A stretch of DNA of 64,000 nucleotides from contig OZ223209.1 of the NCBI GenBank assembly GCA_965140415.1, positions 3,072,001 to 3,136,000 on the forward strand, read 5' to 3'. The translations under genes and the position numbers were made by a program. Under the pieces are notes generated by a model. It saw only the letters and a list, made by a program, of their open reading frames with translations, did not search any database and was not told the origin of the DNA. Numbering within the stretch: position 1 is the first letter of the stretch; the number at the start of each line of letters is the position of its first letter. The DNA is from Myxococcota bacterium. Lineage in GTDB: Bacteria > Myxococcota_A > SURF-8. Below, piece after piece: positions 7,520 through 53,597 of this stretch.

Positions 7520-7614
7520 ATATGTTGTATATGCTACAATACTACATCAATTCTGTTTTTTCCGCAAGTGCTCTCGTGCCCATGACGACAAACATGTGAA
7601 GCAGGTCAGGAGCC

Positions 7615-8920
7615 CACAGCTGTCCCGTTAACTATTGAATAATTCCAACTGCTTACCAAAAGGGATATTGGTAGGCAGGGAGGCGTTTGCCTTTAGCACC
7701 TGTAAAATGGGGCTTTCCTCGAAAAGCGTGACGCTTAAAATCTGTAGAATCGTCATCAAACTGTGCTCGAGATTCAGATCCTTTTTCAGAATCGCAACCA
7801 ACAGATAAACCGTAATCGAAATCCACACTTGTGTCTTTACCGCATTGGCGCTGCGACCGTAAAACGCCTTGATTCGCAGATTCTGTTTGATCCATTTGAA
7901 AAACACTTCGATACTCCACCGCAGCCGGTACAAGTCCGGAATCGTTTCCGAAGAAAGATCAAAGTTGTTGGTCAGCCAGACAAATCGGGTGTTCGATTCT
8001 GGATCGATGTAGTTGATTCGCCGCACATGATCCGGATAGCGTCGAATGGAAGCACGGTCCACGAAGCTCACGGTCTGATCGGCGCGCAATCCCAAGCTCT
8101 TGTCGATGGGGTGTGAATAGATTCGCTTTGTGCTGGTGTTCTTGCTGGCTCTAAGAATGAAGAAGGCTCCCGCCCGATGGATGCGATGCATGCGTCCGTA
8201 ATCGACATAACCGCGATCCATGATATAAAATGCGCCCGCTTCCAAAGGCAGAATATCCAGTAAACGCTTGTCATGGCTCTTGCCGTCCGTAATGGAAATA
8301 AAGGCGGGAATCCGTCCGCGAAGGTCCATTTGCGTGTGAAGACGCAATGATCCATTGTATCGCGTGAATTTGGCCCATGGAAAAAGCGACAAACTCAAAT
8401 CAATCGCTGTCGTGTCGAGCGCGTAGGTGGTGGCGTCTAGGTCGACGGCGAGCTTCTCGTCCGCATACAGCGCGCGGGCGCGCCGTATCAGGGGCTGAGC
8501 GAGATCTGCGTAAATGCGCCAGTCGCGTTTTTCATTCGCTCTGGCCAGTGTGTTGCGAGAGACTTTTCCACGCAGACCCATGTGATAAAGTTTCAGCTGA
8601 ATAGCCCGCAAGGTCGCTTCAATATCGCGCAGGCTTTCGCGGTAGGCCAGCTGGGCAAATGCCATGCAAATGAATTGATCCATACAGGAAAAGGTACGAA
8701 TGCGCTTGTTCCCCTGATAGCGATTGACACAACGGCGGAAATGGCGATCCGGCAAATAGTCGAGCACTTGCGAAAAGACAGTCTGTGTCATTTTGATCTC
8801 CTGCATTTCTTGACTATTCGAAATGCAGAAAAACTATCGCGGACACCTGATAATCACAAATTCAATCTGTAATAATAAGTAGTTGTAGCGCTGAACCTGG
8901 AAGTTAGCGGGACAGCTGTG
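7615..8920 (-). mobile_element. Complete IS4-family insertion sequence (~1.3 kb)
   Basis: 19-bp terminal IRs cacagctgtcccgttaact (7615-7633) and agttagcgggacagctgtg (8902-8920), 1 mismatch; flanking direct repeat gtcaggagcc (7605-7614) / gtcaggagac (8921-8930). Confidence 0.9.
7628..8791 (-). CDS. IS4-family DDE transposase (N-terminal DUF4372-type domain)
   Basis: TVFSQVL...QFICMAFAQL..RESLRDIE; ALDTT; MDRGY; YRLRWSIEVFFKWIKQ (YREK motif); AGGAG RBS before ATG 8791. Confidence 0.93.
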   Translation of the reverse strand: MTQTVFSQVLDYLPDRHFRRCVNRYQGNKRIRTFSCMDQFICMAFAQLAYRESLRDIEATLRAIQLKLYHMGLRGKVSRNTLARANEKRDWRIYADLAQPLIRRARALYADEKLAVDLDATTYALDTTAIDLSLSLFPWAKFTRYNGSLRLHTQMDLRGRIPAFISITDGKSHDKRLLDILPLEAGAFYIMDRGYVDYGRMHRIHRAGAFFILRASKNTSTKRIYSHPIDKSLGLRADQTVSFVDRASIRRYPDHVRRINYIDPESNTRFVWLTNNFDLSSETIPDLYRLRWSIEVFFKWIKQNLRIKAFYGRSANAVKTQVWISITVYLLVAILKKDLNLEHSLMTILQILSVTLFEESPILQVLKANASLPTNIPFGKQLELFNS

Positions 8921-9139
8921 GTCAGGAGACGCCGCCCCAACGGAAGCAATCGCTCGCAAATAAATTCAACCTCGTCATTGTAAACGAGGATACGGATTTT
9001 ACGCAAAAGTCAAATAACGAAATCTAAAGAGATCCGGGAAAGATCGCCACGGATAAATCGGTTGCCCGAAGTCATGCTTTGGCGTATAGATTGAAGATCA
9101 TGCGTATTGCCAGGTTGTGCGAGAAAGGAGAACTCGATC

Positions 9140-25305: not shown

Positions 25306-25345
25306 CATCGGCATGGATCGCCGATGAACAGGTTTCAAGGAGGAA
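25306..25345 (+). promoter_or_regulatory. Putative CsrA-binding leader (ANGGA in a hairpin loop plus a site overlapping the SD)
   Basis: catcggc-ATGGATc-gccgatg hairpin at 25306-25326; cAAGGAgga overlaps the SD before ATG 25351. Confidence 0.5.
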
Positions 25346-25350
25346 CCATC

Positions 25351-26520
25351 ATGAGAGCCTACGAACTAGCCACTAGTGCCGTTGCTCAAAATCAATTCTT
25401 CAAAATTCAGAATATCTCCAACCTTGGTGGAGTAACGAACGCGCAGTTCGCTACGGATGAAGATGTGGCAACTGCTGCTGCGACGGTTGAGTTAAGCAAT
25501 TCCGCACGATTCCGGAATGAAGTCTCGCAGGTTACGGAACAACTTGCCGCTGCGACAGACAATGTGTCGCGTACCCAGGTTGCTGATAATGCGCTGACGA
25601 AAGCGGACGAGTTGCTGGATCAGATCAAGCAACTGGCCGAACAGGCTTCGGAGCAGGGAACCAGCACGGAAACACGGGCCGAGCTGCAAACCCAGGCCGA
25701 TGAACTGATGGAAGAATACACCGCCACCTTCCAGAATGCGGAATACGGAAGCCAGAATGTGTTCGGCATCGCTGCAACTGCGGATGAAGGAGTAACGACG
25801 GAATACACGGCGAATGCTCCTGTTGATGTTCGCGGGATCAACCTAGAGCCGCAGGAAAATCCGGAAACGTTCCTGCAAAATATCAACAATGCGTTGGATC
25901 AGGTGGAACAGGCCAGTACTTTGGTTCAGGAGCGATTGGCAGCCGCCGATCAATCCGCACCTTTTACGTTGGATAACTATGCCAGTTTGGCCTTAGGGAA
26001 TGTGCGTGAGTCCTTGCTGCAAATTCAAGATCTTGCGCAACAGGCTGCGACCCCCAATCTCCCCTATACTGAACGAAGCAACCTGGAAAGCCAGATCGCC
26101 TCGTTGGTGGAAGATGTCGGTTCCGTGCTGGAAAACACCACCTTCGATGGTCAGAACGTATTTACCACCGATGCCAACGCAGATGTCCTTCAGGATTTCA
26201 GCCTGGCGTTGCCGACCATCGATCTGACTACAGAGGAAAGCGCGCAGCTTTCGCTAGGTGGAATTGAACAGGCCATCGAGCAGGTTGGAATCAAGCAGGA
26301 TCAGGTTCAGCAGCTACTGAACGAACAAACGAATCAACTGACTGTGGCTCATCAGAATTATCTTAGCCTGCAAGAAGAGATGAACTCGGTTCAGGAAGCT
26401 ACTCAAGCGGCTCAGCTTGTTTCGTTTACCCAAGATCAGATTCTTTTCCAGAGCGATACGGCTTCGCTGGCACAAGCAACCATCGGACCGCAGGTTATCC
26501 TGCAATTGTTGGACGTCTGA
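25351..26520 (+). CDS. Atypical flagellin-like protein with duplicated D1 domain
   Basis: Two flagellin N-helical segments (TQVADNAL...QLAEQAS...RAELQ...EYGSQNVF; ALGNV...DLAQQAA...ERSNLE...TTFDGQNVF); C-terminal QILFQ..TASLAQA...PQVILQLL. Confidence 0.7.
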   Translation: MRAYELATSAVAQNQFFKIQNISNLGGVTNAQFATDEDVATAAATVELSNSARFRNEVSQVTEQLAAATDNVSRTQVADNALTKADELLDQIKQLAEQASEQGTSTETRAELQTQADELMEEYTATFQNAEYGSQNVFGIAATADEGVTTEYTANAPVDVRGINLEPQENPETFLQNINNALDQVEQASTLVQERLAAADQSAPFTLDNYASLALGNVRESLLQIQDLAQQAATPNLPYTERSNLESQIASLVEDVGSVLENTTFDGQNVFTTDANADVLQDFSLALPTIDLTTEESAQLSLGGIEQAIEQVGIKQDQVQQLLNEQTNQLTVAHQNYLSLQEEMNSVQEATQAAQLVSFTQDQILFQSDTASLAQATIGPQVILQLLDV

Positions 26521-41373: not shown

Positions 41374-41557
41374 TTCTTCAATGACGAATTTCCGGTAATT
41401 CTATCGGGATTTTGGCTAGACAACCCCCGATTTCTTCCCATAATGGTTAATGGCCTTCCATTTTTCCACTGGTGGACTCTGTCACTGGTTTGAAATGTGA
41501 AGTCCAATTGGATCGTATTGTCCAGTCACCTAACGCAAAGCTAACGAGGTCTGATTC

Positions 41558-44500
41558 ATGAAGCCGGGACTGCTACTTTATACTCTAGTTCTATTGGTTT
41601 CGTTTATGCTGTTACCAGCCGGATGCGGTTCTTCGGACAGTAACGAAAACGATGATCAAAGCTGTTTGGATTATTCCTGTGGAGAGCATGGCCGTTGCGT
41701 TGTTTCAACCGATGGCCCCGCCTGTGTGTGTGATGCAGGCTATACGGGAGACGATTGCGACAGTTGCGCCGCAGGTTACGAACGCAGCGGTGGAGATTGC
41801 TTGAAAAGCGATCCATGTGCGGAGGATCCCTGTCGGCACGGCGTCTGTATGGTTGTAAATGGAGAAGCAAGCTGTTCCTGTCATGCCGGATACGCAGGAG
41901 CGTTATGCGATCGCTGCGATCTTGGATATGTGGCAGTCGGTTTGGAATGCCTGCCGGAGTCGATCTGTTCGTCTGAAAGCTGCGTACACGGTGCCTGCAT
42001 GTATGAAGATGGAGAAGCGGTTTGTGCTTGCGATACCGGTTATACGGGAGACCATTGCGATGAGTGTGCGGCAGGGTACGTTCAGGATGGAGACCGCTGC
42101 GTGCCCGGCGAGGAAGATGACATCTGCGATCCCAATCCCTGTAACGAAAACAACCGCACGATCTGTGTCGAAGACGAAGAGGAACTGTATCGTTGCGAGT
42201 GCGATCCGGGTTACATGTTGCAAGATGATCAATGCGTCCTGCAAGGCGGGCCATGTACGCCCAATCCCTGCGAAGAAGAGCATCGCACACGCTGTGTAAC
42301 CGATGGGGAGAATTACACCTGTGAATGCGACAACGGCTATTACGATGACGGCGGAACATGCGTCCAGAGCAGCGGTCCCTGCCAGCCGAATCCCTGCACC
42401 GAAGCCTATCGATCGGTTTGTCAGGAAAGCGGTGAGGACGCTTACGTCTGCTTGTGTGATCCCGGTTACACGGAGGAGCAGGGCGTTTGCGTCGAAAATT
42501 CCGCCTGTTCACCCAATCCATGCACAATCGTTCATCAAACCGTCTGTGTTGAAATCACCGAGGGGTATCGCTGCGACTGCGATACCGGCTACCATGAAGA
42601 AAATGGGGGATGTGTTCTCGACAGCGTGTGCAGTCCCAATCCATGCGACGAAGCAAATCGGAGCCGCTGCTTGGAGCAGGGAGATAGCTACGAATGCCTG
42701 TGCGATCCGGGGTATCACCTGGAATCCGAATCTTGTGTTTTAGATGAGACTTGTGATGCTGCTACAACCTGTTCCGGTCATGGACAATGTGCAGGAAGCG
42801 GGCTGGACTGCATCTGTGATGAGGAATACGCGGGTTCTCATTGTGAAGACTGTGCCGAAGGCTATCATGAAACGGCGACATTCGATTGCGTCGCCGATAC
42901 GCCTTGCGATCCGAATCCCTGCACAACCGTTAACAAGACGGAATGCGTTGCACAGGGCGATTCCTTCACATGCGAATGCGATGAAGGCTATCAGGATGAA
43001 AACGACGATGGCTCCTGTCTGCCGGATTGCAGCACCGCCTCGATCAATTGCGGAGATTTCGGACATTGCGAAATCGTAGCAGGGCAGGCGAATTGCGTAT
43101 GCAACGAAGGCTATCTTGGACCGCTGTGCGATATGCGCAGTTGCGGCACGGTAGTGGAATACGATCCCGGCTCGCAAACGATCAATCATCTGTTTATTCG
43201 TGGAGAGTTTAACGGATGGGGAGAAGGCGATGAACTTGAAAAGGAAGAAGACGGAATCTACCGCATCACGCTGACGCTGACTCCCGGCGATTACGCCTAC
43301 AAGCTGTTCAACCAAGACAGCAACACCTGGTTCGAAGATCCGGGTAATCCCTTTACTAAGTACGTTAATGGCCAGCGCAATTCCCGCCTGCGTGTTTCGG
43401 ACTGTGATGAACCGCAATTGGTTCTTTTAGAGTCTCCCGAGGTTTCAGGAAACGACATCTCATTCGATGTGGCGATCATTCGTGGAAACGCAGGCTCCGC
43501 CATCGATTCTGATTTACTTGTCGCCACACGCAACGGGCAAACGCTTGCCAGCATGTACGATGCGGAAAATCGACGTTTCACGATTCGCGACACGAACCTG
43601 TCTCCCAACAAGTACGCCTATCAGTTCCGTGTGACGGATGAAAGCGGGAAGTCGTCGAACAAGTTGTTCGTGCCGGTCTGGGTTGAAGAGCAACAATTCG
43701 ATTGGAAAGACGGCGTCATGTACTTCGTCATGACTGACCGCTTCAACGATGGCGATTCCTCCAACAACGCATTAGCTCCCAATGTGGATTTCCGTGCCAA
43801 CTGGCAGGGCGGCGATTTCGCCGGAGTCTCGGATAAAATCCAGAGCGGCTATTTCGACGATCTGGGCGTGAACGTGATCTGGATTTCTTCGATCAGCATG
43901 AATACACAGGGATCGGGGATGGGCGTTTCAGACGGTAAAAACTATTCCGGCTATCATTCCTATTGGCCGGTTTCCACCGGATGGACGGAAGAAGAACCCC
44001 TTTCGGGTGTCGAAGCGGTCGATCCGCACTTCGGTGATCTTCAGGAATTCAAGGATCTGGTGGAAGAAGCGCATCTGCATGGTATTCGCGTGATTGTCGA
44101 TTTCGTCGCCAATCATTTCCACGAATCTCATCCGCTCTATCAGCAACATAAAAACGACGGCTGGTTCCATACGCCGCAGTATGTGTGCGGCTGGGATCGT
44201 CCCATCGAATGCTGGTTCACCGGTTACTTACCCGATTTGGAATACAAGAACCTGGATGTTCTGGACCGCATGACCGACCACGCCGTCTGGTTGGTTCAGG
44301 AAACCAACATAGACGGTTTCAGGCTGGACGCCGTAAAGCACATGATCCACGATTTCGGCTGGACTTTGCGTGCGCGCATCGATGAAGAGGTCGATACAAC
44401 GGAGGATATCCGCTTTTACATGGTCGGCGAAACCTTCGTCGGCGCAGACGAAGCCAGCACGATTCTCGCCTATATCGGCGAGGACGAACTGGACGGCCAA

Positions 44501-45193
44501 TTCGATTTTCCGATCTACTGGCGCGTTTTGTGGACTTTCTTGAAGGAAAGCAGCGACTTCAACTCCTTAAACGGTTTCATGAATATCAATGACAGCTACT
44601 ATCCAGATTACGCGGTCATGAGTAACTTCATGGGCAACCACGATGTCGCCCGCGCCATCAGCGAAGCGAATTTCGAAAACGTGGGTGATCCCTGGGGCTA
44701 TCAACCCGGTGTGCCATCGAATGTGGATGTGTTCAAGAAAATGCGTTTGGCCTGGTCCTATCTGCTGACCATCCCCGGCATCCCCTTGATTTACTACGGA
44801 GACGAAATCGGTCTTCCGGGAGCCAGCGACCCGGATAACCGTCGCATGATGATCTTCGGAAACGAGCTTTCGACGGATCAGAACAACACCCTGCAACACG
44901 TGCGGGCCTTGGGACAGATTCGACGCAATCACCCGGCTTTGTCGCGCGGTACACGTACCACGTTGAGCATCGATGCTGATTTCTGGGTGTATGCGCTGGT
45001 TGAAGGCAGTGACAAGGTGGTGGTGGTATTGAATCGAAACGGCTCGGCGCAGTCTCGTAGTGTCAATCTGTCTTCCATAGGCATCACATCAGGCACGCTC
45101 ACAGACGAATTAAACGGCGGTAGCGTTTCGGTTTCCGGGGGTAGCATAACGGTCAATGCACCCGCTAAAAGCGCCCTGATCTTCGCTCAGTAA
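41558..45193 (+). CDS. EGF-repeat lipoprotein with CBM48-like domain and GH13 alpha-amylase
   Basis: Lipobox PAGC; ~11 EGF-like modules; RGEFNGW (CBM48-like); TDRF.DGD; GGDF.G; DFVANH; DGFRLDAVKH; VGE; GNHD; YYGDEIG..G..DPDNRR. Confidence 0.88.
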   Translation: MKPGLLLYTLVLLVSFMLLPAGCGSSDSNENDDQSCLDYSCGEHGRCVVSTDGPACVCDAGYTGDDCDSCAAGYERSGGDCLKSDPCAEDPCRHGVCMVVNGEASCSCHAGYAGALCDRCDLGYVAVGLECLPESICSSESCVHGACMYEDGEAVCACDTGYTGDHCDECAAGYVQDGDRCVPGEEDDICDPNPCNENNRTICVEDEEELYRCECDPGYMLQDDQCVLQGGPCTPNPCEEEHRTRCVTDGENYTCECDNGYYDDGGTCVQSSGPCQPNPCTEAYRSVCQESGEDAYVCLCDPGYTEEQGVCVENSACSPNPCTIVHQTVCVEITEGYRCDCDTGYHEENGGCVLDSVCSPNPCDEANRSRCLEQGDSYECLCDPGYHLESESCVLDETCDAATTCSGHGQCAGSGLDCICDEEYAGSHCEDCAEGYHETATFDCVADTPCDPNPCTTVNKTECVAQGDSFTCECDEGYQDENDDGSCLPDCSTASINCGDFGHCEIVAGQANCVCNEGYLGPLCDMRSCGTVVEYDPGSQTINHLFIRGEFNGWGEGDELEKEEDGIYRITLTLTPGDYAYKLFNQDSNTWFEDPGNPFTKYVNGQRNSRLRVSDCDEPQLVLLESPEVSGNDISFDVAIIRGNAGSAIDSDLLVATRNGQTLASMYDAENRRFTIRDTNLSPNKYAYQFRVTDESGKSSNKLFVPVWVEEQQFDWKDGVMYFVMTDRFNDGDSSNNALAPNVDFRANWQGGDFAGVSDKIQSGYFDDLGVNVIWISSISMNTQGSGMGVSDGKNYSGYHSYWPVSTGWTEEEPLSGVEAVDPHFGDLQEFKDLVEEAHLHGIRVIVDFVANHFHESHPLYQQHKNDGWFHTPQYVCGWDRPIECWFTGYLPDLEYKNLDVLDRMTDHAVWLVQETNIDGFRLDAVKHMIHDFGWTLRARIDEEVDTTEDIRFYMVGETFVGADEASTILAYIGEDELDGQFDFPIYWRVLWTFLKESSDFNSLNGFMNINDSYYPDYAVMSNFMGNHDVARAISEANFENVGDPWGYQPGVPSNVDVFKKMRLAWSYLLTIPGIPLIYYGDEIGLPGASDPDNRRMMIFGNELSTDQNNTLQHVRALGQIRRNHPALSRGTRTTLSIDADFWVYALVEGSDKVVVVLNRNGSAQSRSVNLSSIGITSGTLTDELNGGSVSVSGGSITVNAPAKSALIFAQ

Positions 45194-45205
45194 AGAAGGA
45201 CTCTC

Positions 45206-47920
45206 ATGATTCGCCAAACGAGAAATATGCCGATCTTCTGGCTGTTTGCCCTTTCACTATTCCTTTTACCTGCATGCTCGAATGACGAGGATACGAATCC
45301 CTGTTCCGATATCGACTGTTCCGGGTATGGGGTCTGTGTCGTTCAAGGAGAGGATTATTCCTGTACTTGCGACGGCGGCTACACCGGAAAGGACTGCGAC
45401 CAATGCGCCGCCGACTTCGTGCGCCAGGGCGATGCCTGCGTACCCGATTACGGTGGAGACAATCCCATCATCCCGCCGAGTGATTATGATTACACTTCAG
45501 ATGGCGATCAGAACCCGGATGGTGACCAGCTTCCCGATGGAGACAACACAATCGATGGCGACTCCATTTCGGATGGAGATTCCGTTGTAGATGGTGATGT
45601 GCCTGTCGATGGTGACACGATAGTTGACGGCGATCTTGAAACCGACGGTGACTCGATCACGGATGGGGACAATCCTATTGACGGCGATAGTGTCTTAGAT
45701 GGCGACATGGAGTTGGATGATGCTCCGGATGGCGATATGGTCGAAGATGTAGATTCGCTGGAAGAGGATGTCGATTCCGTAGCCGATAAATGCAGGCCCA
45801 ACCCCTGCTCGGAATACCATCGCACGGTATGCGTCGAAAATCGTCAGGATGGATACTCCTGCGAATGCGACAGCGGCTATCGGTTGGAGCAAGGGCTTTG
45901 CCTGCCGGATTGCACCGTAGATGCGACGCTCTGTCAGGCGGCTTCGGACACCTCGCCTTTACTGGTGAGCGCCAATGGCTTCAGTGCCATCGGATGGAAC
46001 AAGGCTGAACGAAAAGCCGATACGTTCCTGGAGCATATCTATCGCAACTGGGATGAAAACGTATGGACTCGCGATTTGTTATACGATTCCTACTTTGGCC
46101 TGCGATATGGCGATCAGGCGACATGGCTGAACAGCGTTGCACCGGATTATTGGGGCTATGTGCAGGAAAGCGGCATCATTCACATCATCAGAACGGTTGG
46201 TGATTTCAAAGTGGAGTCCTTTTACTTTTCTCCCTGGTCTGTGGCGCGACCGGCTATGACCATGGTGTTGAAGATTACGAGCCTGGCCACTACCACCCAA
46301 TCTGTTTCTGCTTACAGCCTGCATAATTATCATCTGGGTTATATCAGCACGATCGATCCGGTGAATCCCGATGCATTGAATGAAACCATGACATACGACG
46401 TAAATAGCGGAGCGTATTTCGAAAATGGAATAGGGGGAGCGCTGGTCCATCTGCCGTTATCAGGCAGCGATCATCATGCCTGCACGCCGGACAATCCCTA
46501 TCAAGCCCTATTGAACGGACAGGATCTGGCCGACACTGCGTCCAGCGGGCTTGGAAGTGACCGTGTCGCCGGATTCCAGAAGAATTTCACGATAGCCCCT
46601 GGTGAAAGTGCGATTTTCAGTGTGGCTACCGCATTCGATGCTTCTGGTGATTCCGCAGCCGCGTTACAGGATCTTCAAATCGCTTATAGCGGCCATTGTT
46701 GTCAGCAGGCGCTCGATGCCGAACTGGAAGCCTGGGAAAACTGGCGAAAGCCGATCCCCGAAGGCATGAATCTTTCGCCGGAAGAGGAGATGGTCTACCG
46801 ACAGTCGGAAGCGGTGTTGCGCATGGGTCAGGTGAGGGAAACCTCGGATCTTTCTTTCGGTCAGATTCTGGCTTCGATGCCTCCCGGTAACTGGAATATC
46901 TGCTGGATGCGCGATATGACCTATGCCATCATTGCTCTGGTGCAAATGGGACATTGGCAAGAGGCACGCGATGCGCTGGCTTTCGTCCTGAATGCGGATT
47001 CCGGCTACTATCAGGATTACAGCGGTACGCCATACCAGGTGACGATCACACGCTATTTCGGACGTGGAAAAGAGGAAACCGACTCCAACGAAAACGGTCC
47101 GAATATCGAATATGACGGCTTCGGCTTGTTCCTTTGGGCTTTGGCCGAATACCTGGAAGCCTCCGGCGATACGGAACTGTTAACGCAGCACTGGACGACG
47201 ATTCGGGATGAAATTGCCGGTGCACTACTTGCGCTGTTGCAGCCTAACGGCATGATTGCAGCGGATTCCTCCATCTGGGAGGTTCACTGGAACGGACAGC
47301 AGAAACAGTATAGTTATACATCGCTAACCGCAGCAAACGGCTTATGTCGCCTTGCTCCATTGGTCCGAACGGCGGGCTATACAAGCGAAGCCGACAGCTA
47401 CGAGCAGGCCGCGGCGACGTTGCGACAGGGCATTCGCTTGGAATGCATCGATAATGACAACGTACTGGCCAGTTCCATCGAGGAATTGGAATCCGGCTCC
47501 GGCTATTATGACGTCGCCACGGTAGAGGCGTTCAACTGGCCGGTGTTCAATCCGACTGGTGACATCGCCTCGGCGACATTCAACATGTACGATCAGCACC
47601 TGAAAATTTCCAGCGGTCGCGGCTATTTCAGAAACGACGATGGTGGCTGGTACGATTCGCAGGAATGGGTGTTCGTCGATTTGCGCGCCTCTCGGGCATT
47701 GCGACGGGCGGGTCAAACCGAACGTGCCGATGATCTGCTGAATTGGATCACCGCACAGGGAATGCACAATCAGGGTATGATTTCCGAACTGCACGAGCCT
47801 TCCAACGGTACCTATGAAGGTGAATACCCCATGGTGGGATTCGGGGCAGGCGCTTATATTTTGGCCCTGTTCGAGCGTGCTTTCCCATCGGATGTCGCAT
47901 CCGCTTGCGGTCAATGGTAG
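45206..47920 (+). CDS. EGF/DGD-repeat lipoprotein with GH15 glucoamylase domain
   Basis: Lipobox LPAC followed by SNDED; 2 EGF modules; DGD repeats; CWMRD; SSIWEVH; ISE. Confidence 0.8.
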   Translation: MIRQTRNMPIFWLFALSLFLLPACSNDEDTNPCSDIDCSGYGVCVVQGEDYSCTCDGGYTGKDCDQCAADFVRQGDACVPDYGGDNPIIPPSDYDYTSDGDQNPDGDQLPDGDNTIDGDSISDGDSVVDGDVPVDGDTIVDGDLETDGDSITDGDNPIDGDSVLDGDMELDDAPDGDMVEDVDSLEEDVDSVADKCRPNPCSEYHRTVCVENRQDGYSCECDSGYRLEQGLCLPDCTVDATLCQAASDTSPLLVSANGFSAIGWNKAERKADTFLEHIYRNWDENVWTRDLLYDSYFGLRYGDQATWLNSVAPDYWGYVQESGIIHIIRTVGDFKVESFYFSPWSVARPAMTMVLKITSLATTTQSVSAYSLHNYHLGYISTIDPVNPDALNETMTYDVNSGAYFENGIGGALVHLPLSGSDHHACTPDNPYQALLNGQDLADTASSGLGSDRVAGFQKNFTIAPGESAIFSVATAFDASGDSAAALQDLQIAYSGHCCQQALDAELEAWENWRKPIPEGMNLSPEEEMVYRQSEAVLRMGQVRETSDLSFGQILASMPPGNWNICWMRDMTYAIIALVQMGHWQEARDALAFVLNADSGYYQDYSGTPYQVTITRYFGRGKEETDSNENGPNIEYDGFGLFLWALAEYLEASGDTELLTQHWTTIRDEIAGALLALLQPNGMIAADSSIWEVHWNGQQKQYSYTSLTAANGLCRLAPLVRTAGYTSEADSYEQAAATLRQGIRLECIDNDNVLASSIEELESGSGYYDVATVEAFNWPVFNPTGDIASATFNMYDQHLKISSGRGYFRNDDGGWYDSQEWVFVDLRASRALRRAGQTERADDLLNWITAQGMHNQGMISELHEPSNGTYEGEYPMVGFGAGAYILALFERAFPSDVASACGQW
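45500..45740 (+). repeat. In-frame 18-bp tandem repeats encoding (DGDxxx)n
   Basis: DGDQNPDGDQLPDGDNTIDGDSISDGDSVVDGDVPVDGDTIV... Confidence 0.75.
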
Positions 47921-47923
47921 CTC

Positions 47924-50101
47924 ATGGACCGTTTCGCTGCGATTCGTTACCTCTTGGTCTGTGGGTTTTGCCTGATTCCCGGTCTTTTTGTGATCTGCTG
48001 CCAGGATGATTCCGCGAAGCAAACTCAACGCGATTGCCGCCTTACAGTTTATTACGAACCGGAAGAGGGGCATACCGGGCCGTTTTATCTGGTCGGCGAT
48101 TTCAACAACTGGGAAGAAGGGCACACTCGCCTCGTCGATCAAAACGAGGATGGCGTTTACGTAGCGCGTTTGGCGCTTCCACCCGGTCCGGCGTATTACC
48201 GGATCTGGGACGACGGAGAACTGCTGTTGGATGCCAACAATCCGTTGACGGCCTACGACGAGCAGGAAAAAGAGCAATCCTTTCGGCGCATTGCAGATTG
48301 CAGTCAGCCGGAATTGCAAGTACATTCCGTAGAAATCAATGAGGGAAAACTCGATTTGCAATTGCGATTATTGCGAAACGAGTCCGACTTGCCAATCGAT
48401 CCAGAAAGTCTCTCAGTTCAAACGGCGGAAGGATTGAAACTGGGTGCATCTGCTTCCGTTAGTTCGGGAGAAATCGTCGCTACAGGAAGTCTGCCTCTGG
48501 GGAAATCCTGGTTGCAGGTGAAGGCGAAGGATATCGAAGGAAACTCGGCGGAACTCTCATTTCCGGTATGGAATGAAGAAGAGCCCTTTGATTGGCAGGA
48601 CGCGACGATTTACCAGATTGTGGTGGACCGGTTTCGGAAAGGGCAGGGCGTTTTGGCTTCCGGTCCGATCTCGCATTATCTCGGTGGCGATTTGAAGGGA
48701 ATTCAAGAGGCAATTGAACAAGGCTATTTCGAGGAGCTTGGCGTCAACGTGCTGTGGCTGTCTCCACTCTATGACAATCCAGAGGGACTGTATTTTGGCC
48801 TGGACGATCACTGGTACGAAGCCTATCACGGCTACTGGCCCTCCGATTCCCTTTCCGTTGAACCGCATTTCGGTACGCCGGAAGATCTGGATAACCTGGT
48901 GAAGGCTGCACACCAGAAAGGAATCCGCGTGTTGATGGATCTGGTTCCGAATCACGTCCACCAAACCAATCCGTATTTCATTGAAAACAAAGACAAGGAC
49001 TGGTTCAATTTTCCAGACGGCTCCTGTGTGTGCGGTCGCGGTACTTGCTCCTGGGCGACGGACATCGAATACTGCTGGTTTACCGAATACTTACCGGATT
49101 TCAACTGGAAGAAGCTGGAGGTTGTGGACCGTATGCGAGCCGATGCGTTAGCCTGGCTCAAACGCTTCGATCTGGACGGTTTCCGAATTGATGCCGTAGC
49201 CATGATGCCGCGCCTGGCCACCCGCCAGCTTCGCGATGCGTTCAGGACCGCCATTGATATTGGTGGCACGAGAACCTATCTGATCGGTGAAACCTACACC
49301 GGATCGGAAGGGCAGGGCAAGATCCGCTGGTATCTTGGACCGCAGGGATTGGACGGCCAATTCGACTTCCCCCTTATGTGGCAGTTGCGAGAAGTGATCG
49401 CCCATGGATCGGCGGATATGGAGTTGCTACAGGATACCATCGATGAAAGCGAAGCGGCCTGGGAAGGTTCCGGTGCGGTGATGGGATTGATCCTGGGAAA
49501 CCACGATGTCACCCGCTTCATTTCGGAAGCCAACGACGACCCATTGAACGACTCCTGGGGAGCGCCGCCGGAGCAACCACAGAACCGGGAAGCCTATCAG
49601 CGGCTGGCTCTGGCTTTTGCGGTGCTGTTCACATTGCCGGGAGCACCTATTATTTATTATGGAGATGAAATCGGCTTGCCGGGCGCGAGTGACCCGGACA
49701 ATCGCAGACCATTTCCCGTAGACGTCCAGTTAAACGAACATGCTCGCTGGCTTCGTGAGCAGGTTCAACAGCTTGGCCAACTGCGCCAGACGTATTCAGC
49801 CCTACGTCGCGGAAGCAGACGTTCCATTTTGGCAGAAGACAGCACGCTTGGTTTTCTTCGTGAATCGGATGACGCCGATAGTGTTTTGATCCTGTTAAAC
49901 GGAAGCACACAGGCTCGAAAAATTAGCCTGGACCTACAACAATGTGGTAAACTGAAAGATGCTAACGGGTTGATAGACCATTTCGGAACGTCGGTAGGCA
50001 TTCACGACCAGAATCTTTCGCTGGTGTTGCCGCCTTTATCCTTTGCCATCGTAACCGGCTCGGACAAAGGTGAGACATCCCCGAAGACGGAGAAGGAATG
50101 A
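47924..50101 (+). CDS. CBM48-like + GH13 alpha-amylase/neopullulanase-like lipoprotein
   Basis: VICCQDDS N-terminus; LVGDFNNW; VDRF; GGDL.G; YHGYW; DLVPNH; DGFRIDA; IGE; GNHD; DPDNRR. Confidence 0.88.
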   Translation: MDRFAAIRYLLVCGFCLIPGLFVICCQDDSAKQTQRDCRLTVYYEPEEGHTGPFYLVGDFNNWEEGHTRLVDQNEDGVYVARLALPPGPAYYRIWDDGELLLDANNPLTAYDEQEKEQSFRRIADCSQPELQVHSVEINEGKLDLQLRLLRNESDLPIDPESLSVQTAEGLKLGASASVSSGEIVATGSLPLGKSWLQVKAKDIEGNSAELSFPVWNEEEPFDWQDATIYQIVVDRFRKGQGVLASGPISHYLGGDLKGIQEAIEQGYFEELGVNVLWLSPLYDNPEGLYFGLDDHWYEAYHGYWPSDSLSVEPHFGTPEDLDNLVKAAHQKGIRVLMDLVPNHVHQTNPYFIENKDKDWFNFPDGSCVCGRGTCSWATDIEYCWFTEYLPDFNWKKLEVVDRMRADALAWLKRFDLDGFRIDAVAMMPRLATRQLRDAFRTAIDIGGTRTYLIGETYTGSEGQGKIRWYLGPQGLDGQFDFPLMWQLREVIAHGSADMELLQDTIDESEAAWEGSGAVMGLILGNHDVTRFISEANDDPLNDSWGAPPEQPQNREAYQRLALAFAVLFTLPGAPIIYYGDEIGLPGASDPDNRRPFPVDVQLNEHARWLREQVQQLGQLRQTYSALRRGSRRSILAEDSTLGFLRESDDADSVLILLNGSTQARKISLDLQQCGKLKDANGLIDHFGTSVGIHDQNLSLVLPPLSFAIVTGSDKGETSPKTEKE

Positions 50102-50481
50102 GGACATCCAACGCATGGTTATTCTTGTTGATCTCGTTGAGTTTCCTGCTAGTATGCGGCTGTAGCGGTGATGACGATGACCCGGTTTTTCATGATTACG
50201 ATGTAATCATCGATGGAGATCTGGATGTAGTCGACCATTGGGATCCCGGAGATGATCCCGGTGATAATGGAAATTGCGGCAGCGGCTATGGATACGGGGA
50301 AGACTGCACCCCTGTAGAGGGAAATATCGACTGCGATCAAGATCCTTGTGTATATGGTTCCTGTGTCCGTGATACTGGAGAGGACTATTGTCGTTGCGAC
50401 ACAGGGTATTCTGGTGTTTTATGCGACAGTTGTGCGGATGGTTACCACACGGAAAACCTTCGTTGCGTCCCCAATCGATAA
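50098..50481 (+). CDS. Small lipoprotein with one EGF/laminin-EGF-like module
   Basis: Lipobox VCGC followed by SGDDDD; CDQDPCVYGSC...CRCDTGYSGVLCDSCADGY; ATGA overlap with upstream gene. Confidence 0.75.
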   Translation: MRTSNAWLFLLISLSFLLVCGCSGDDDDPVFHDYDVIIDGDLDVVDHWDPGDDPGDNGNCGSGYGYGEDCTPVEGNIDCDQDPCVYGSCVRDTGEDYCRCDTGYSGVLCDSCADGYHTENLRCVPNR

Positions 50482-50545
50482 CCCATAAACGACCGAAACT
50501 TCCAGGCATGGAAGTTTCTTTAATCTGCTTGAATAGGAACGAATC

Positions 50546-52954
50546 ATGCTCGCAGTTTTAGAAAACAAGCTTTTCACTTTTGCATTTGTTCTGGTCGCCG
50601 GTCTTCTGTTGATTTCGGCTTGCTCCAGTGATGATGACGCGAATCCGGGAGATGCGGATGGAGATCAGGAAGTCGTAATTGAAGATTCGACACTGGAATG
50701 CCTACAGGATTCGGACTGCGGCATCGGTGAATTCTGTTCGGCAGCAGGGATGTGTTTGGAAGAATGTCGAACGGAACTCGATTGTCCCCCTAACGATTAC
50801 TGTATGCCCAGCGTAAGCGCCCGTTGTCTGGATTGTCTTGAAGACGAGCACTGTAACGACAAGGGTGATGATGCCTACTGCGACATGGATTATTACAAGT
50901 GCCGCATTGGTTGTGATGACTGCGAATCGGACCAGGTTTGCGTGGAAGATCGCTGCGTTACACAAGTCATCGATGGCGATCTGGATGCTGAAACGGAAGG
51001 GGATCTTGAAGAAGAAGGGGACACGGTAGAAGTCTTTAAATGCCCTAACCCGGAAGATCCGCTATTGCGTTGCGAACCGAGTTGTTCCGAATGTCTGACT
51101 CCTATGTCCGCCCGAAAATGCAATGAAGAGGGGAGCGGTTGGATTAACGCCAGTTGCGAACAGGATGAATTCTGTAATTCGAGCACGGGGTTTTGTGAAA
51201 AGACGACCTGTGAAGCGGGGGAACAGTACTGCGAAGGCAATATCGCTCGTGTATGCAAAGATGACGGTTCCGGCTATCGCGACACAACCTGTCAACAGCC
51301 GAACCAATGTCTGGACGGTGCCTGCGTGATTTTAGCCTGTAAGGATTCCACGGCGCGCCTGTTCACATTAAACGCAAGAAGCGCAGTCGGGTCACCGGAC
51401 CGCTTTTGCAATGTTGCCGTCAATCGCGGCTCCGCCCAATGGGCAGAGATGGATAACCACGGCGGTGTGGCGACTTTCGACGGTTCCAGCGCCCGCATGT
51501 TGCTAGATTCCTCTGCCGGCGATTTTCAGGAAGGGCTGACCGTGCGGCTTGATGTTCTTGCAGCAGGAGACATGAGTGGCAATCAGACGCTTATCGCCAA
51601 GGGAAATACTCCCGTCAGTTACGAGTTGGCGCTTGAAGATGGCAATGTGGTGTTTACTTTAACGATTTCAGGTGGTTACTCAAAGCGCATCGAAGGTGCG
51701 CAGTTAGACGGTAATACCTGGCACAGCATTACAGGAACTTTCGATGGTCTGGAAATGCGATTGTACATCGACGGCAACCAGCAGGGCGCACCGGTTCTGA
51801 TGCAAACGAAAAAACTGATCGAACGCAACCCACGCATCATTTCCATTGGAGCCAGAACCCAGGACTCCGGAACGGCTTATCGCTATTTCGAAGGTTCGCT
51901 CGACAACATCTACCTCTCCGGTCGCGCACTGGATTATTTCGAAGTGGATTACTTCAGGGATCGCAAGGACTTATGCCCCTTATCCGATGAGGAAGACCTG
52001 TACTGCAACGACGATTTATGCAATCGCCAGTATGTTTCGGTTCCAATCAACGAACCATGGCAGGAAGAGGGCATGGACCTTATTCCGGGCGAAGCGGTGT
52101 TCGTCGATCCGGGTGGTTGCCCGGACCCGCAGGTTGGTCAGGCTTGTATTGGCCCGCAGGGACTGGATAATGGCAGCAACTGCGATGTATGTCCGGTCAC
52201 GACCAGTTTCCAGTATAGTTTGATTGCAAAAGTCGGAGAAAGCGGACCTCCTTTCTATGCTGGAGAGCGCGATATCTATGTAGCGAATCGCTTTGGAGCG
52301 CTTCTTTTCGGATACAATGACGAGGGATTCAGCGAAAATCTTGGAGGTTTCAACGTTCTAGTTGAAAACGGATACTGCAAAATCAGTGAATGTCCGGACG
52401 GAATGGTGCCGATTCCAAATAAGGATGCTTGCGTCGACCGCTATGAGGCATCCTGTGCGACGGCCAGCTATGCCAGTTCGAGTACGTGTTCAGCGGAGAA
52501 TGATGATGAGCCGGTCAGTCTCCCGGGGCTGTTCCCTTGGACCAACATCACAGCAGAAGATGCCGTAATTACCTGTGCTAGAGTCGGCAAGCGTTTGTGT
52601 AAAAGCGAGGAATGGGACGACAGTTGCGCAGGATACTCCGAGTTAAACTATCCGTACGGTGACAGCTATCAGTCCCTTTACTGCAATGACAATAACTACA
52701 CGTCACCACTGGATAATTCTGATCTGACATCAACTGGATACATGTATCGTTGCGTCACCGAAACCGGTGCCTTCGACATGGCTGGCAATGCGGCGGAATT
52801 CGTTTCGAAAGAATCCGGTGGATTCAGGGCCATGGCAGGGAAGGGCTTTGCTGGTGACAATGCCTGTTACGATCGTTTGGATTTCTCCGGTGCAGGTCTG
52901 CTTATCGGTTTCCGCTGTTGCATGGACCATGAAGCAGATGTAGAAGAAGACTAG
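50546..52954 (+). CDS. Cys-rich lipoprotein with LamG-like domain and C-terminal FGE-sulfatase (SUMF1-like) domain
   Basis: Lipobox ISAC followed by SSDDD; WHSITGTFDG..MRLYIDG; FEGSLDN; CPDGMV; DRYE; GKRLC..EW; YPYG; DMAGN..E; GFRCC. Confidence 0.8.
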   Translation: MLAVLENKLFTFAFVLVAGLLLISACSSDDDANPGDADGDQEVVIEDSTLECLQDSDCGIGEFCSAAGMCLEECRTELDCPPNDYCMPSVSARCLDCLEDEHCNDKGDDAYCDMDYYKCRIGCDDCESDQVCVEDRCVTQVIDGDLDAETEGDLEEEGDTVEVFKCPNPEDPLLRCEPSCSECLTPMSARKCNEEGSGWINASCEQDEFCNSSTGFCEKTTCEAGEQYCEGNIARVCKDDGSGYRDTTCQQPNQCLDGACVILACKDSTARLFTLNARSAVGSPDRFCNVAVNRGSAQWAEMDNHGGVATFDGSSARMLLDSSAGDFQEGLTVRLDVLAAGDMSGNQTLIAKGNTPVSYELALEDGNVVFTLTISGGYSKRIEGAQLDGNTWHSITGTFDGLEMRLYIDGNQQGAPVLMQTKKLIERNPRIISIGARTQDSGTAYRYFEGSLDNIYLSGRALDYFEVDYFRDRKDLCPLSDEEDLYCNDDLCNRQYVSVPINEPWQEEGMDLIPGEAVFVDPGGCPDPQVGQACIGPQGLDNGSNCDVCPVTTSFQYSLIAKVGESGPPFYAGERDIYVANRFGALLFGYNDEGFSENLGGFNVLVENGYCKISECPDGMVPIPNKDACVDRYEASCATASYASSSTCSAENDDEPVSLPGLFPWTNITAEDAVITCARVGKRLCKSEEWDDSCAGYSELNYPYGDSYQSLYCNDNNYTSPLDNSDLTSTGYMYRCVTETGAFDMAGNAAEFVSKESGGFRAMAGKGFAGDNACYDRLDFSGAGLLIGFRCCMDHEADVEED

Positions 52955-53055: not shown

Positions 53056-53099
53056 AGAAATAGATGCGTTTCTAGTTTTCCTGCTTGGAGAAGATACAC

Positions 53100-53597
53100 A
53101 TGCCGAAAAAAACGAAAGCGAATGACTCTGAGTTAAAGACGGGAAAAGTCGCACCGACATTTTCGCTTCAGGCCACAACTGGAATCAAGATCAATTTGAA
53201 AGAATTCAAGGGTGAGAAAAACGTGGTTGTGTATTTCTACCCGAAGGATGATACGCCGGGTTGTACGATCGAGGCGAAGGAATTCGAGAATTTAAAGACG
53301 AAGTTTGCAAAGAACGGCTCCGTTGTTCTGGGAATCAGTCCCAATGATATGGATAGTCACAACGACTTCTGTAGGAAAAACAATTTAACGTTTCCTTTGT
53401 TGGTCGATCAGGATGCGAAAATCGCAAGAAAATATGGAGTTTGGAAAGAAAAAGAGATTTTCGGACAGTCTTTCATGTCCGTGCTAAGAACGACCTTTGT
53501 CATCGGAAAAGACGGAAAAATCAAGAAGATCTACTCGAATGTTAAAGTCAGCGGTCACGCCAGAAACGTCCTGGCATTTGTCAAGACACTCAACTGA
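53100..53597 (+). CDS. bcp: Peroxiredoxin BCP/PrxQ
   Basis: VYFYPKDDTPGCT.EA; LGISP; RTTFVI. Confidence 0.92.
   Translation: MPKKTKANDSELKTGKVAPTFSLQATTGIKINLKEFKGEKNVVVYFYPKDDTPGCTIEAKEFENLKTKFAKNGSVVLGISPNDMDSHNDFCRKNNLTFPLLVDQDAKIARKYGVWKEKEIFGQSFMSVLRTTFVIGKDGKIKKIYSNVKVSGHARNVLAFVKTLN

Follow-up and report, generated by a model that had tools for sequence, protein, structure and literature searches.

The closest described systems for bacterial use of alpha-glucans are the maltose/maltodextrin (Mal) system of Enterobacteria, the Sus system of Bacteroides and the amylosome of Ruminococcus bromii. The Mal system consists of LamB, MalE, MalF, MalG, MalK and MalS, and in Klebsiella the pullulanase PulA is a surface lipoprotein. 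The Sus system comprises SusC/D together with the surface lipoprotein amylase SusG and the binding lipoproteins SusE/F, and the amylosome of R. bromii is based on cohesin and dockerin. In this study, we analyzed a group of five open reading frames (ORFs; A to E) from a Myxococcota bacterium, located at positions 41558-52954 of a stretch of 64,000 nucleotides, in the following called the window. The ORFs encode predicted lipoproteins, among them enzymes of the glycoside hydrolase (GH) families 13 and 15 type carried on epidermal growth factor (EGF) modules.

Genes A to D (41558-50481) probably form one operon, which would represent the polymer-attacking outer half of a system, common in Myxococcota, for alpha-glucans (starch, glycogen, maltodextrin) with a maltoporin and an ATP-binding cassette (ABC) importer. 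In this system, EGF modules and DGD repeats would serve as spacers, and gene E would be unrelated. The reading draws on gene content, synteny, domain families, catalytic residues and the variability of the stalks.

Gene content of the locus

The genome of the window (G000) is a single contig of 5.98 Mb with 93.7% completeness, and the window covers positions 3,072,001-3,136,000. Relatives are labeled in the same way (e.g. G001) and fetched loci L0xx. All five ORFs are located on the forward strand, with 12 bp between A and B, 3 bp between B and C, a 4-bp overlap of C and D, and 64 bp between D and E, which confirms the gaps given by the initial annotation. The genes are:

Gene A: 41558-45193, forward strand; 1211 amino acids (aa), predicted lipoprotein (Cys23) whose 11-EGF stalk is followed by CBM48, a beta domain, the GH13 catalytic domain and a C domain
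Gene B: 45206-47920, forward strand; 904 aa, predicted lipoprotein (Cys24) with two EGF modules separated by about 100 aa of DGDxxx repeats, and a GH15-like beta-sandwich plus (alpha/alpha)6 enzyme
Gene C: 47924-50101, forward strand; 725 aa, stalkless predicted lipoprotein with a CBM48-like domain, a beta domain and GH13
Gene D: 50098-50481, forward strand; 127 aa, predicted lipoprotein combining an acidic linker, a conserved WDPG...GYGYG motif and a single eight-Cys EGF module
Gene E: 50546-52954, forward strand; 802 aa, predicted Cys-rich lipoprotein with LamG and FGE-sulfatase-like domains

Pfam and the N-terminal hydrophobic stretches with their Cys residues support the presence of a cluster of alpha-glucan-degrading predicted lipoproteins with the domain architectures proposed initially.

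Conservation of the cluster and its link to maltodextrin transport

Orthologues of B were present in 24 of 40 related genomes searched, and ten loci from relatives at the level of family, order or phylum were fetched. In seven of these (L011-L017), A, B, C and a D-like ORF are collinear; the seven come from the same family as G000, from its order and from one further family. The flanks of the window (HTH, VIT-VWA, AhpC) match in none of the ten fetched loci. The four genes travel as a block. A conserved cluster order is thus seen for A to D, and E was adjacent in none of the ten loci.

For a wider view, species-representative genomes were searched with a profile of B orthologues, yielding 321 relatives. 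The best 80 loci were evaluated over ±10 kb with preset bit-score thresholds; counts in these 80 loci are lower bounds, many loci being cut by contig ends. According to the record titles, the 80 loci belong to Myxococcota, Polyangia, Polyangiaceae, 'Myxococcales', 'Deltaproteobacteria' metagenome-assembled genomes (MAGs) or an unresolved MAG, which agrees with the Myxococcota origin suggested initially, and no cultured close relative was found among the loci holding B homologues. The following genes were counted:

CBM48-GH13 of the A/C type: 62/80 loci
LamB: 51/80 loci
Fourth GH13: 44/80 loci
MalK: 17/80 loci
MalE::F: 15/80 loci
CBM25/26 protein: 1/80 loci
Gene E: 0/80 loci

Downstream of D in relatives (L013, L015, L016, L017, L019), Pfam identified LamB (up to 2.5e-29) and then a GH13 enzyme of 650-700 aa, followed by MalK (ABC_tran with OB_MalK/TOBE), a fusion of SBP_bac_1 and BPD_transp_1 (MalE::MalF), and MalG. 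In G000, LamB has a single match genome-wide. It belongs to a second half of the locus at about 5.591-5.599 Mb of the contig (C1), minus strand and 2.5 Mb away, which contains LamB, the fourth GH13 (GH13c; 655 aa, lipobox LLVSC), MalK, MalE::MalF (785 aa) and MalG. The features defining a Mal-type system, i.e. LamB and a MalEFGK importer tied to glycosidases, are thus linked in relatives and unlinked in G000. The predicted ancestral locus order is A-B-C-D-LamB-GH13c-MalK-MalEF-MalG, and the locus is split in G000; the same applies to G001, which is the closest relative of G000, and to G003 and G008. The initial statement that an ABC transporter is absent is correct for the window but misleading for the system, and the designation as a Sus-independent amylosome-like system was not supported, the cluster being continued in relatives by LamB, a fourth GH13, MalK, MalE::MalF and MalG.

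The window also contains an insertion sequence (IS) of about 1.3 kb (DUF4372 and DDE_Tnp_1 transposase, 392 aa) at approximately 7610-8930, with its ORF at 7628-8806 on the minus strand. Ten copies are present in G000 at ≥99.5% identity, and five further places match at 80% identity. The IS as cause of the locus split was not supported: one near-identical copy is found directly beside malG (C1:5589933-5591261), but this is the far end of the block and not the breakpoint between D and LamB, and the closest relative G001 likewise has A to D without LamB.

In G003, the gene after D (L012:4945-6048) encodes a starch-binding protein with CBM25 and CBM26 and without catalytic domain; homologues are found elsewhere in G000 at C1:5789275-5790465 and 3574257-3575063. 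In the same locus, a disulfide-forming VKOR-DsbA/thioredoxin fusion (L012:3664-4899) is encoded two genes from the EGF-rich cluster. This may be a coincidence, though disulfide-rich stalks need such machinery.

Gene E and the end of the conserved unit

The initial annotation had described all five genes as one operon. For gene E, this was not supported: it adjoins the cluster in none of the ten loci of relatives and in none of the 80 wider Myxococcota loci. Full-length orthologues of E (34-44% identity; 33-42% by tblastn) are located at other places in eight relatives, for example in G001 at 0.96 Mb with the cluster at 0.68 Mb, and no A-D gene was found near E in the seven E loci fetched. In two of these seven loci (G004, G001), E is followed by AhpC, as it is in the window (AhpC/TSA peroxiredoxin, 53085-53597). 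Because E is found elsewhere in relatives and beside AhpC, it belongs with its downstream neighbor and not with the amylase genes. A further feature lies in the gap between D and E:

Hairpin, terminator-like: 50495-50518, forward strand; perfect 10-bp stem with a weak T tract, 14 nt past the stop codon of D

The hairpin has a folding energy of -14.2 kcal/mol (z -2.14), and 6 of 200 shuffled sequences fold as well; it is suggestive of the operon end. Judged from its distribution among the genomes, E is an unrelated neighbor gene outside the conserved unit.

The protein itself matches Laminin_G_3 (2.1e-13) and FGE-sulfatase (1.4e-9) in Pfam, and a Protein Atlas search with E returned only LamG/FGE clusters with scores <0.9. 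It represents a family of Cys-rich LamG and FGE-sulfatase-like lipoproteins of about 770-830 aa, conserved in eight relatives.

The GH13 enzymes A and C

In A, Pfam detected EGF (1.2e-20; 73.8 bits), Alpha-amylase PF00128 (7.5e-40) and AMPK1_CBM/CBM48 PF16561 (27.9 bits, above the cut-off of 26.8). The protein consists of two parts:

EGF stalk of A: 41663-43120, forward strand; residues 36-521 with four eight-Cys (laminin/teneurin-like) modules, six 'CxPNPC' six-Cys modules and one terminal six-Cys module
Catalytic part of A: 43136-45190, forward strand; residues 527-1211 with CBM48 at 543-615, a second beta domain and GH13 at 723-1090

A regular expression gave ten modules, with the eight-Cys modules at residues 36-81, 87-131, 137-181 and 399-444; the eleventh, at residues 491-521, comes from Pfam (EGF, hEGF, EGF_2, EGF_3). 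Thereby, a GH13 enzyme on about 11 EGF modules, six of them sharing the C.PNPC pattern, was confirmed.

The catalytic triad of A (D924/E958/D1029) aligns with that of C (D423/E456/D528), which is invariant in 22 sequences, and both proteins share 35% identity across 659 residues. As annotated initially, C is thus a second, paralogous GH13 enzyme without EGF stalk, and the alignments also agree with the initial statement that the D/E/D triads of both GH13 enzymes and the WE motif of the GH15-like enzyme are intact. In Pfam, C matches Alpha-amylase PF00128 (2.9e-51), and AMPK1_CBM PF16561 stays below the cut-off of 26.8 with 20.4 bits; the region aligns with the CBM48 of A. Region II is canonical in A (GFRLDAVKH), whereas in C it reads GFRIDAVAMM ('RIDAVAMMPR' after the nucleophile) without the usual Lys-His. 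C and 21 aligned orthologues have 'AVxMMPR' in this place, with M427, P429 and R430 invariant. Also, four invariant Cys residues (C368, C370, C375, C384) in the B-domain region of C are kept in 21 orthologues. The deviating motif is compatible with membership in GH13 and suggests a different specificity, and C and its orthologues may represent a distinct GH13 subgroup. The best solved relatives of C are the alpha-amylases of Geobacillus (4e2o; 4e-55) and Anoxybacillus (5a2a; 2e-49), two enzymes that likewise rank in the top three for the fourth GH13.

In a FastTree phylogeny of 93 A/C-type GH13 sequences, midpoint-rooted so that the order of events is not fixed, the A-type enzymes form one clade (support 99) with EGF upstream in 22 of 23 rows, the 23rd being cut off where its contig begins. 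A separate clade contains the C-type enzymes from these genomes, and no C-type orthologue carries EGF.

Proposed function and location of the enzymes

From the data described above, we infer the enzyme activities, their location on the outer surface, the order of the steps and the spacer role as follows. CBM48 would bind the polymer, i.e. starch, or glycogen from prey or dead cells, which would then be cut by A, an alpha-amylase-type GH13 enzyme whose working distance from the membrane would be set by its stalk of about 490 residues and 11 EGF modules. B, probably an exo-acting glucohydrolase on its EGF-DGD-EGF stalk, would take glucose or short units off the chain ends. A and B would both be lipid-anchored and act away from the membrane. 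C, anchored without stalk and with a different active-site motif, would act close to the membrane. Released maltodextrins would enter via the LamB maltoporin, be trimmed by the fourth GH13 lipoprotein, and be imported by MalE::MalF-MalG-MalK; in most relatives, the genes for these steps come right after D. EGF modules and DGD repeats would be length-variable spacers, a building habit of the lineage, and not specific docking units.

The N-terminal hydrophobic stretch of each protein from A to E ends in a Cys residue, and the candidate lipobox Cys is conserved in orthologues of A, B, C and D (invariant C22 in D). Several lipoboxes are atypical (LPAGC, VICC); that of E (LISAC) is a good one. The acidic residues directly after the candidate lipobox Cys of A to E are reminiscent of the surface-export signal of lipoproteins in another phylum, the Bacteroidota.

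A different, and in our view unlikely, location for A to D is the periplasm. In this case, they would be periplasm-facing lipoproteins at the inner leaflet of the outer membrane or at the inner membrane, trimming maltodextrins past LamB as MalS of E. coli, which is periplasmic, and their EGF stalks would span the periplasm. The surface position of A to D is indeed a deduction, the disulfide-rich EGF modules must fold in the periplasm, and all four GH13/GH15 enzymes carry predicted lipoboxes, including the one encoded between LamB and MalK, so that a lipobox alone is no mark of an extracellular enzyme. However, the glycogen/starch-binding CBM48 of A and the CBM48-like region of C suit polymers too large for a maltoporin. 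With a length of roughly 2.5-3 nm per EGF module, the 11-module stalk would be about as long as, or longer than, the width of the periplasm. Moreover, an entirely periplasmic set of enzymes would leave the system with no means to attack extracellular polymer.

EGF and DGD stalks

The profile of B orthologues including the EGF stalk modules (positions 32-104) matches Notch1 EGF in the PDB (7.5e-8) and also fibrillin EGF; no calcium-binding consensus was seen by eye in the EGF modules. B carries EGF in 24 of the 80 loci, and these are the same loci whose upstream GH13 has EGF. Counted by regular expression, the number of modules per orthologue varies between four and nine for A (ten here) and between one and seven for B (two here). 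In place of the DGD linker of B, one relative has TD repeats, others have extra EGF modules, or a low-complexity linker is absent.

A search with the stalk of A alone gave 480 proteins at E≤1e-10. Among the 120 matches listed, a hand count of the heads on similar stalks, based on precomputed Pfam domains, yielded about 29 GH13, about 17 clostripain C11, seven GH57, five GH15 and one GH31, and further two FGE, two metallo-beta-lactamase, PPC, LTD and others. Where named, the stalk proteins among the matches listed come from Myxococcota or 'Deltaproteobacteria' MAGs. The variable module number, the interchangeable linkers and the reuse of the stalk on unrelated heads all fit a spacer, one of the two roles considered initially, and specific docking fits less well.

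The initial idea of graded distances from the membrane agrees with the sequences in part: A and B are always stalked and C never, but an order with A farther out than B is not conserved, since B with 1125 aa exceeds A with 1049 aa in G006.

Of the 4330 ORFs of G000, 214 contain DGDx3 repeats; 190 of these have a crude lipobox, and 159 have the repeat ≤150 aa past the Cys. By these counts, the repeats are a predicted genome-wide tether in G000. EGF modules as a genome-wide habit of G000 were ruled out, the two A/B types of module being found in 9 and 4 of the 4330 ORFs, whereas many proteins of the wider lineage carry the EGF stalk. Three of the EGF-bearing ORFs of G000 are A, B and D. Two other lipoproteins of G000 have related stalks: one (C1:5029161-5031761) combines a long DGD tether and a CxPNPC EGF module with a C-terminal region that is clostripain-like by eye, the other (C1:4484377-4487748) has eight-Cys EGF modules and a C-terminal region that is FGE-sulfatase-like by eye.

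The small predicted EGF lipoprotein D

In Pfam, D gave no match other than EGF_laminin with 17.8 bits, which is under the cut-off. In 17 aligned sequences, the lipobox Cys, W48 (of WDPG) and GYGYG between two Cys residues are invariant or nearly so, and the same applies to the cysteines of the one or two eight-Cys EGF modules. The structure model of D has a predicted local distance difference test (pLDDT) value of about 95 for the EGF part and of 51-61 for the WDPG-GYGYG part. Counts of D in the 80 loci are lower bounds: a strict motif expression detected 10, a looser one 16, and inspection of ORFs added others. When the D profile was searched against 1.84 billion representatives, generic EGF arrays dominated, and about 20 stand-alone full-length D-like proteins of 126-184 aa were present among the 150 matches listed.

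In a high-GC Polyangia contig, a lipoprotein of about 305 aa (L051:3480-4393) lacks a catalytic domain: CBM48 and the beta domain from the N-terminus of a C-like enzyme run into a D module (WDPG-GYGYG-EGF-EGF). This join of C and D may result from a deletion, a genuine fusion or a faulty assembly. A representative of likewise 305 aa (P0192) shows the same layout with the D module at the C-terminus. A complex prediction pairing residues 27-725 of C (alignment of 22 rows) with residues 40-127 of D (17 rows) scored 0.29 against a mark of 0.32, which speaks neither for nor against binding. D represents a conserved family and is possibly an accessory lipoprotein that binds glucan or a partner.

Taken further, such a role leads to an amylosome-like assembly, in which the EGF modules would be docking units and D, with its WDPG-GYGYG motif, the adaptor uniting A, B and C in a complex. 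This is quite improbable. The conservation of D, the 4-bp overlap with C, its confinement to the clade with EGF-stalked A and B, and its persistence beside A to C where the LamB half is elsewhere (G000, L037, L040, L048) are all in line with it, as are the D modules joined to the N-terminal CBM48 part of C in L051 and located at the C-terminus of P0192. The low pLDDT of the motif region is also expected of a segment folding on a partner. On the other side, the number and order of EGF modules vary widely between orthologues, unlike those of specific docking modules, the same stalks occur on unrelated enzymes such as peptidases and beta-lactamase-fold proteins, and each partner already has its own lipid anchor. 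Besides, cohesin and dockerin (PF00963, PF00404) have no match in G000. SusD_RagB has no match in G000 either, and no TonB-dependent or SusD protein is present among the 32 window neighbors scanned, in agreement with the initial annotation, which had noted the absence of SusC/D and cohesin/dockerin.

A related but looser arrangement appears doubtful as well, namely a layered 'brush' on the outer membrane in one Myxococcota clade. A and B would stand on EGF stalks and C flush above the maltoporin, D would organize the stalked enzymes or capture glucan chains, and, for feeding as predators or saprophytes, GH57, GH31 and clostripain-like peptidases would be mounted on the same type of EGF stalk.

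The GH15-like enzyme B

B is composed of the following parts:

Stalk of B: 45302-45901, forward strand; residues 33-232 with an eight-Cys EGF module, DGD hexapeptide repeats and a CxPNPC EGF module
GH15-like catalytic region of B: 45908-47917, forward strand; residues 235-904

Pfam assigned EGF (4.7e-6) and Glyco_hydro_15 PF00723 (28.7 bits at a cut-off of 22), and NCBIfam gave GH15-type trehalase (8e-11) and oligosaccharide amylase (3e-10), both far below the equivalog cut-offs. The AlphaFold model of residues 235-904 (pLDDT 96.3, predicted template modeling score 0.95) shows an N-terminal beta-sandwich together with a barrel of the (alpha/alpha)6 type, i.e. a GH15-type fold. With Foldseek, dextran dextrinase 9ju0 was the best match (TM 0.72-0.74, 17% identity), followed by GH94 phosphorylases of like architecture (0.69-0.71), glucodextranase 1ug9 (0.67) and glucoamylase 1lf6 (0.66); identity to the solved GH15 relatives is 11-17%. 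A profile of 56 B sequences also found 9ju0 (1.4e-10) and 1lf6 (7.3e-6) in the PDB, while a single-sequence search of the PDB with B gave no catalytic homologue, the sole match being that of EGF to E-selectin.

The general acid of GH15 enzymes is located in the alpha5-alpha6 loop and the general base in the alpha11-alpha12 loop (PMC12446779). In B, E692 ('SIWE') and E861 are invariant in 56 sequences and correspond to E458 and E627 of the model, which lie in these two loops, between helices 429-443/469-488 and 604-620/643-658, respectively; the base was placed by loop position and not by residue-level alignment. The 'DSSIWE' stretch aligns with 'DYSIWE' of dextran dextrinase. According to PMC12446779, the retaining cluster of dextran dextrinase is marked by a Phe-Tyr (S4) and a Gly-Glu (S5) dyad, the latter being common to this cluster and its nearest neighbor cluster. 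B and its orthologues lack these dyads and have Trp-Tyr ('GGWYDSQEW'), located in the alpha9-alpha10 loop of the model, and Ser-Glu ('ISELH') instead. By the criterion of these authors, B is more likely an inverting hydrolase.

Besides glucoamylase, GH15 includes enzymes such as glucodextranase, trehalase, isomaltose glucohydrolase and dextran dextrinase (PMC12446779). Since the closest solved relative of B is a transglucosylating dextran dextrinase at 17% identity, the name 'glucoamylase' given initially is unproven and a reasonable guess rather than a finding, whereas membership in GH15 is supported by Pfam and fold. The B family is far from every characterized GH15 member and may have a new specificity. 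A natural fusion in G018 of the same phylum (L019:8902-13437) supports that B-type and A/C-type enzymes are functionally linked; there, a GH15-like enzyme, CBM48 and GH13 are combined in one ORF of 1511 aa, with LamB and another GH13 following.

That B instead remodels glucans, building alpha-1,6-glucan for a capsule or matrix from the maltodextrins of A and C as a dextran-dextrinase-like transglucosidase, is very improbable: 9ju0 is its best match in sequence and structure and its Trp-Tyr pair sits where dextran dextrinase has the Phe-Tyr dyad (PMC12446779), but the Ser-Glu pair points to an inverting hydrolase by the reasoning of the authors of that study, B has no CBM35-like N1 domain, and its gene is linked to the maltoporin (LamB in 51 of the 80 loci) and the maltodextrin importer, which argues for uptake.

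Evaluation of the proposed function

Several points weigh against the interpretation of A to D as the outer half of a Mal-type system with spacer stalks. The lipoprotein status of A to D is predicted from sequence pattern and conservation, and their exposure at the surface, as opposed to the periplasm, is deduced from CBM48, the stalk length and the maltoporin. The transport half is unlinked in G000, so that co-regulation is assumed. The best solved relative of B, at 17% identity, is a transglucosidase rather than a hydrolase, and C, lacking the Lys-His after the nucleophile, may differ in specificity from an amylase. With regard to the stalks, the rarity of A/B-type EGF modules in G000 and their concentration in the operon could mean more than a generic spacer; also, D is found after C only in the clade whose A and B bear EGF, which fits a stalk-related role.

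Further features of the window

Upstream of gene A, one promoter-like site was found:

Promoter-like site 5' of gene A: 41417-41444, forward strand; TAGACA-16-CATAAT, 10/12 consensus positions, consensus match only

Promoter-like sites are fewer in the region than in shuffled sequences, and the site is accordingly weak. The neighbors in the window are ordinary chromosomal genes, i.e. genes for carbamoyl-phosphate synthase, CTP synthase, BamB, endonuclease V, AhpC, an ECF transporter and a two-component system, and the IS. At 25324-26520, an ORF of 398 aa has a match to the N-terminal domain of flagellin (5.4e-11), although myxobacteria are generally regarded as non-flagellated.

Comparison with known systems

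A full-text literature search returned no paper on EGF-stalked amylases or on this myxobacterial locus. The myxobacterial amylases AmyM and AmyCf are described as secreted enzymes of cultured Myxococcia. In public data, EGF-stalked GH13, GH15, GH57 and GH31 proteins are annotated as 'hypothetical' or generically as 'alpha-amylase family'. Uptake of alpha-glucans by a Mal-type system is ordinary; the combination of EGF-stalked, lipid-anchored GH13 and GH15 enzymes with a small EGF lipoprotein is undescribed in the literature searched.

The system shows how a large, mostly uncultured group from soil, sediment and groundwater probably uses starch or glycogen as food, with prey or dead cells as a possible source, by means of an ordinary core of maltoporin and ABC importer and outer enzymes on EGF stalks otherwise typical of animal extracellular proteins. 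If the stalks do set the distance between enzyme and cell, they would be a simple natural design for surface display, and the brush-like arrangement, if true, would add to Sus-type loci and cohesin-dockerin assemblies a third way in which bacteria arrange polysaccharide-degrading enzymes on their surface. The B family with at least 321 relatives, remote from characterized members, is a candidate source of new GH15 specificity.

At the level of single enzymes, B shares the fold, the Pfam GH15 assignment and the two invariant loop Glu residues with dextran dextrinase of Gluconobacter (9ju0; PMC12446779), a bacterial glucoamylase (1lf6) and glucodextranase of Arthrobacter (1ug9), and differs from them by its N-terminal EGF/DGD stalk and predicted lipid anchor. 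C has the 'LPD' motif and the catalytic triad in common with the alpha-amylases of Geobacillus and Anoxybacillus (4e2o, 5a2a), to which A and C add an N-terminal CBM48 (CBM48-like in C), beta domains and a predicted lipobox, and in C 'DAVAMMPR' replaces the usual 'D..KH'.

With the amylosome of R. bromii, the locus shares several starch-active GH13 enzymes presumed to act together at the cell surface; here, in contrast, each enzyme has its own predicted lipid anchor, and cohesin and dockerin have no match in G000. As in the Sus system of Bacteroides, a lipid-anchored amylase with carbohydrate-binding modules is combined with small non-catalytic lipoproteins, an outer-membrane channel and further glycosidases behind it. 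Here, in a different phylum, the SusD family has no match in G000 and a passive maltoporin takes the place of SusC; to our knowledge, Sus has no EGF stalks. The Mal system of Enterobacteria, together with PulA, has in common with the present one a LamB-family maltoporin, MalK with an OB/TOBE tail, a binding protein, two permease components, GH13 enzymes acting before import, and a lipid-anchored starch-degrading or debranching enzyme. The system described here differs by four predicted lipoprotein glycosidases accompanying the transporter, one of them GH15-like, by the fusion of MalE to MalF, by the EGF stalks of two enzymes, by a small accessory protein with EGF, and by a locus that is split in G000.

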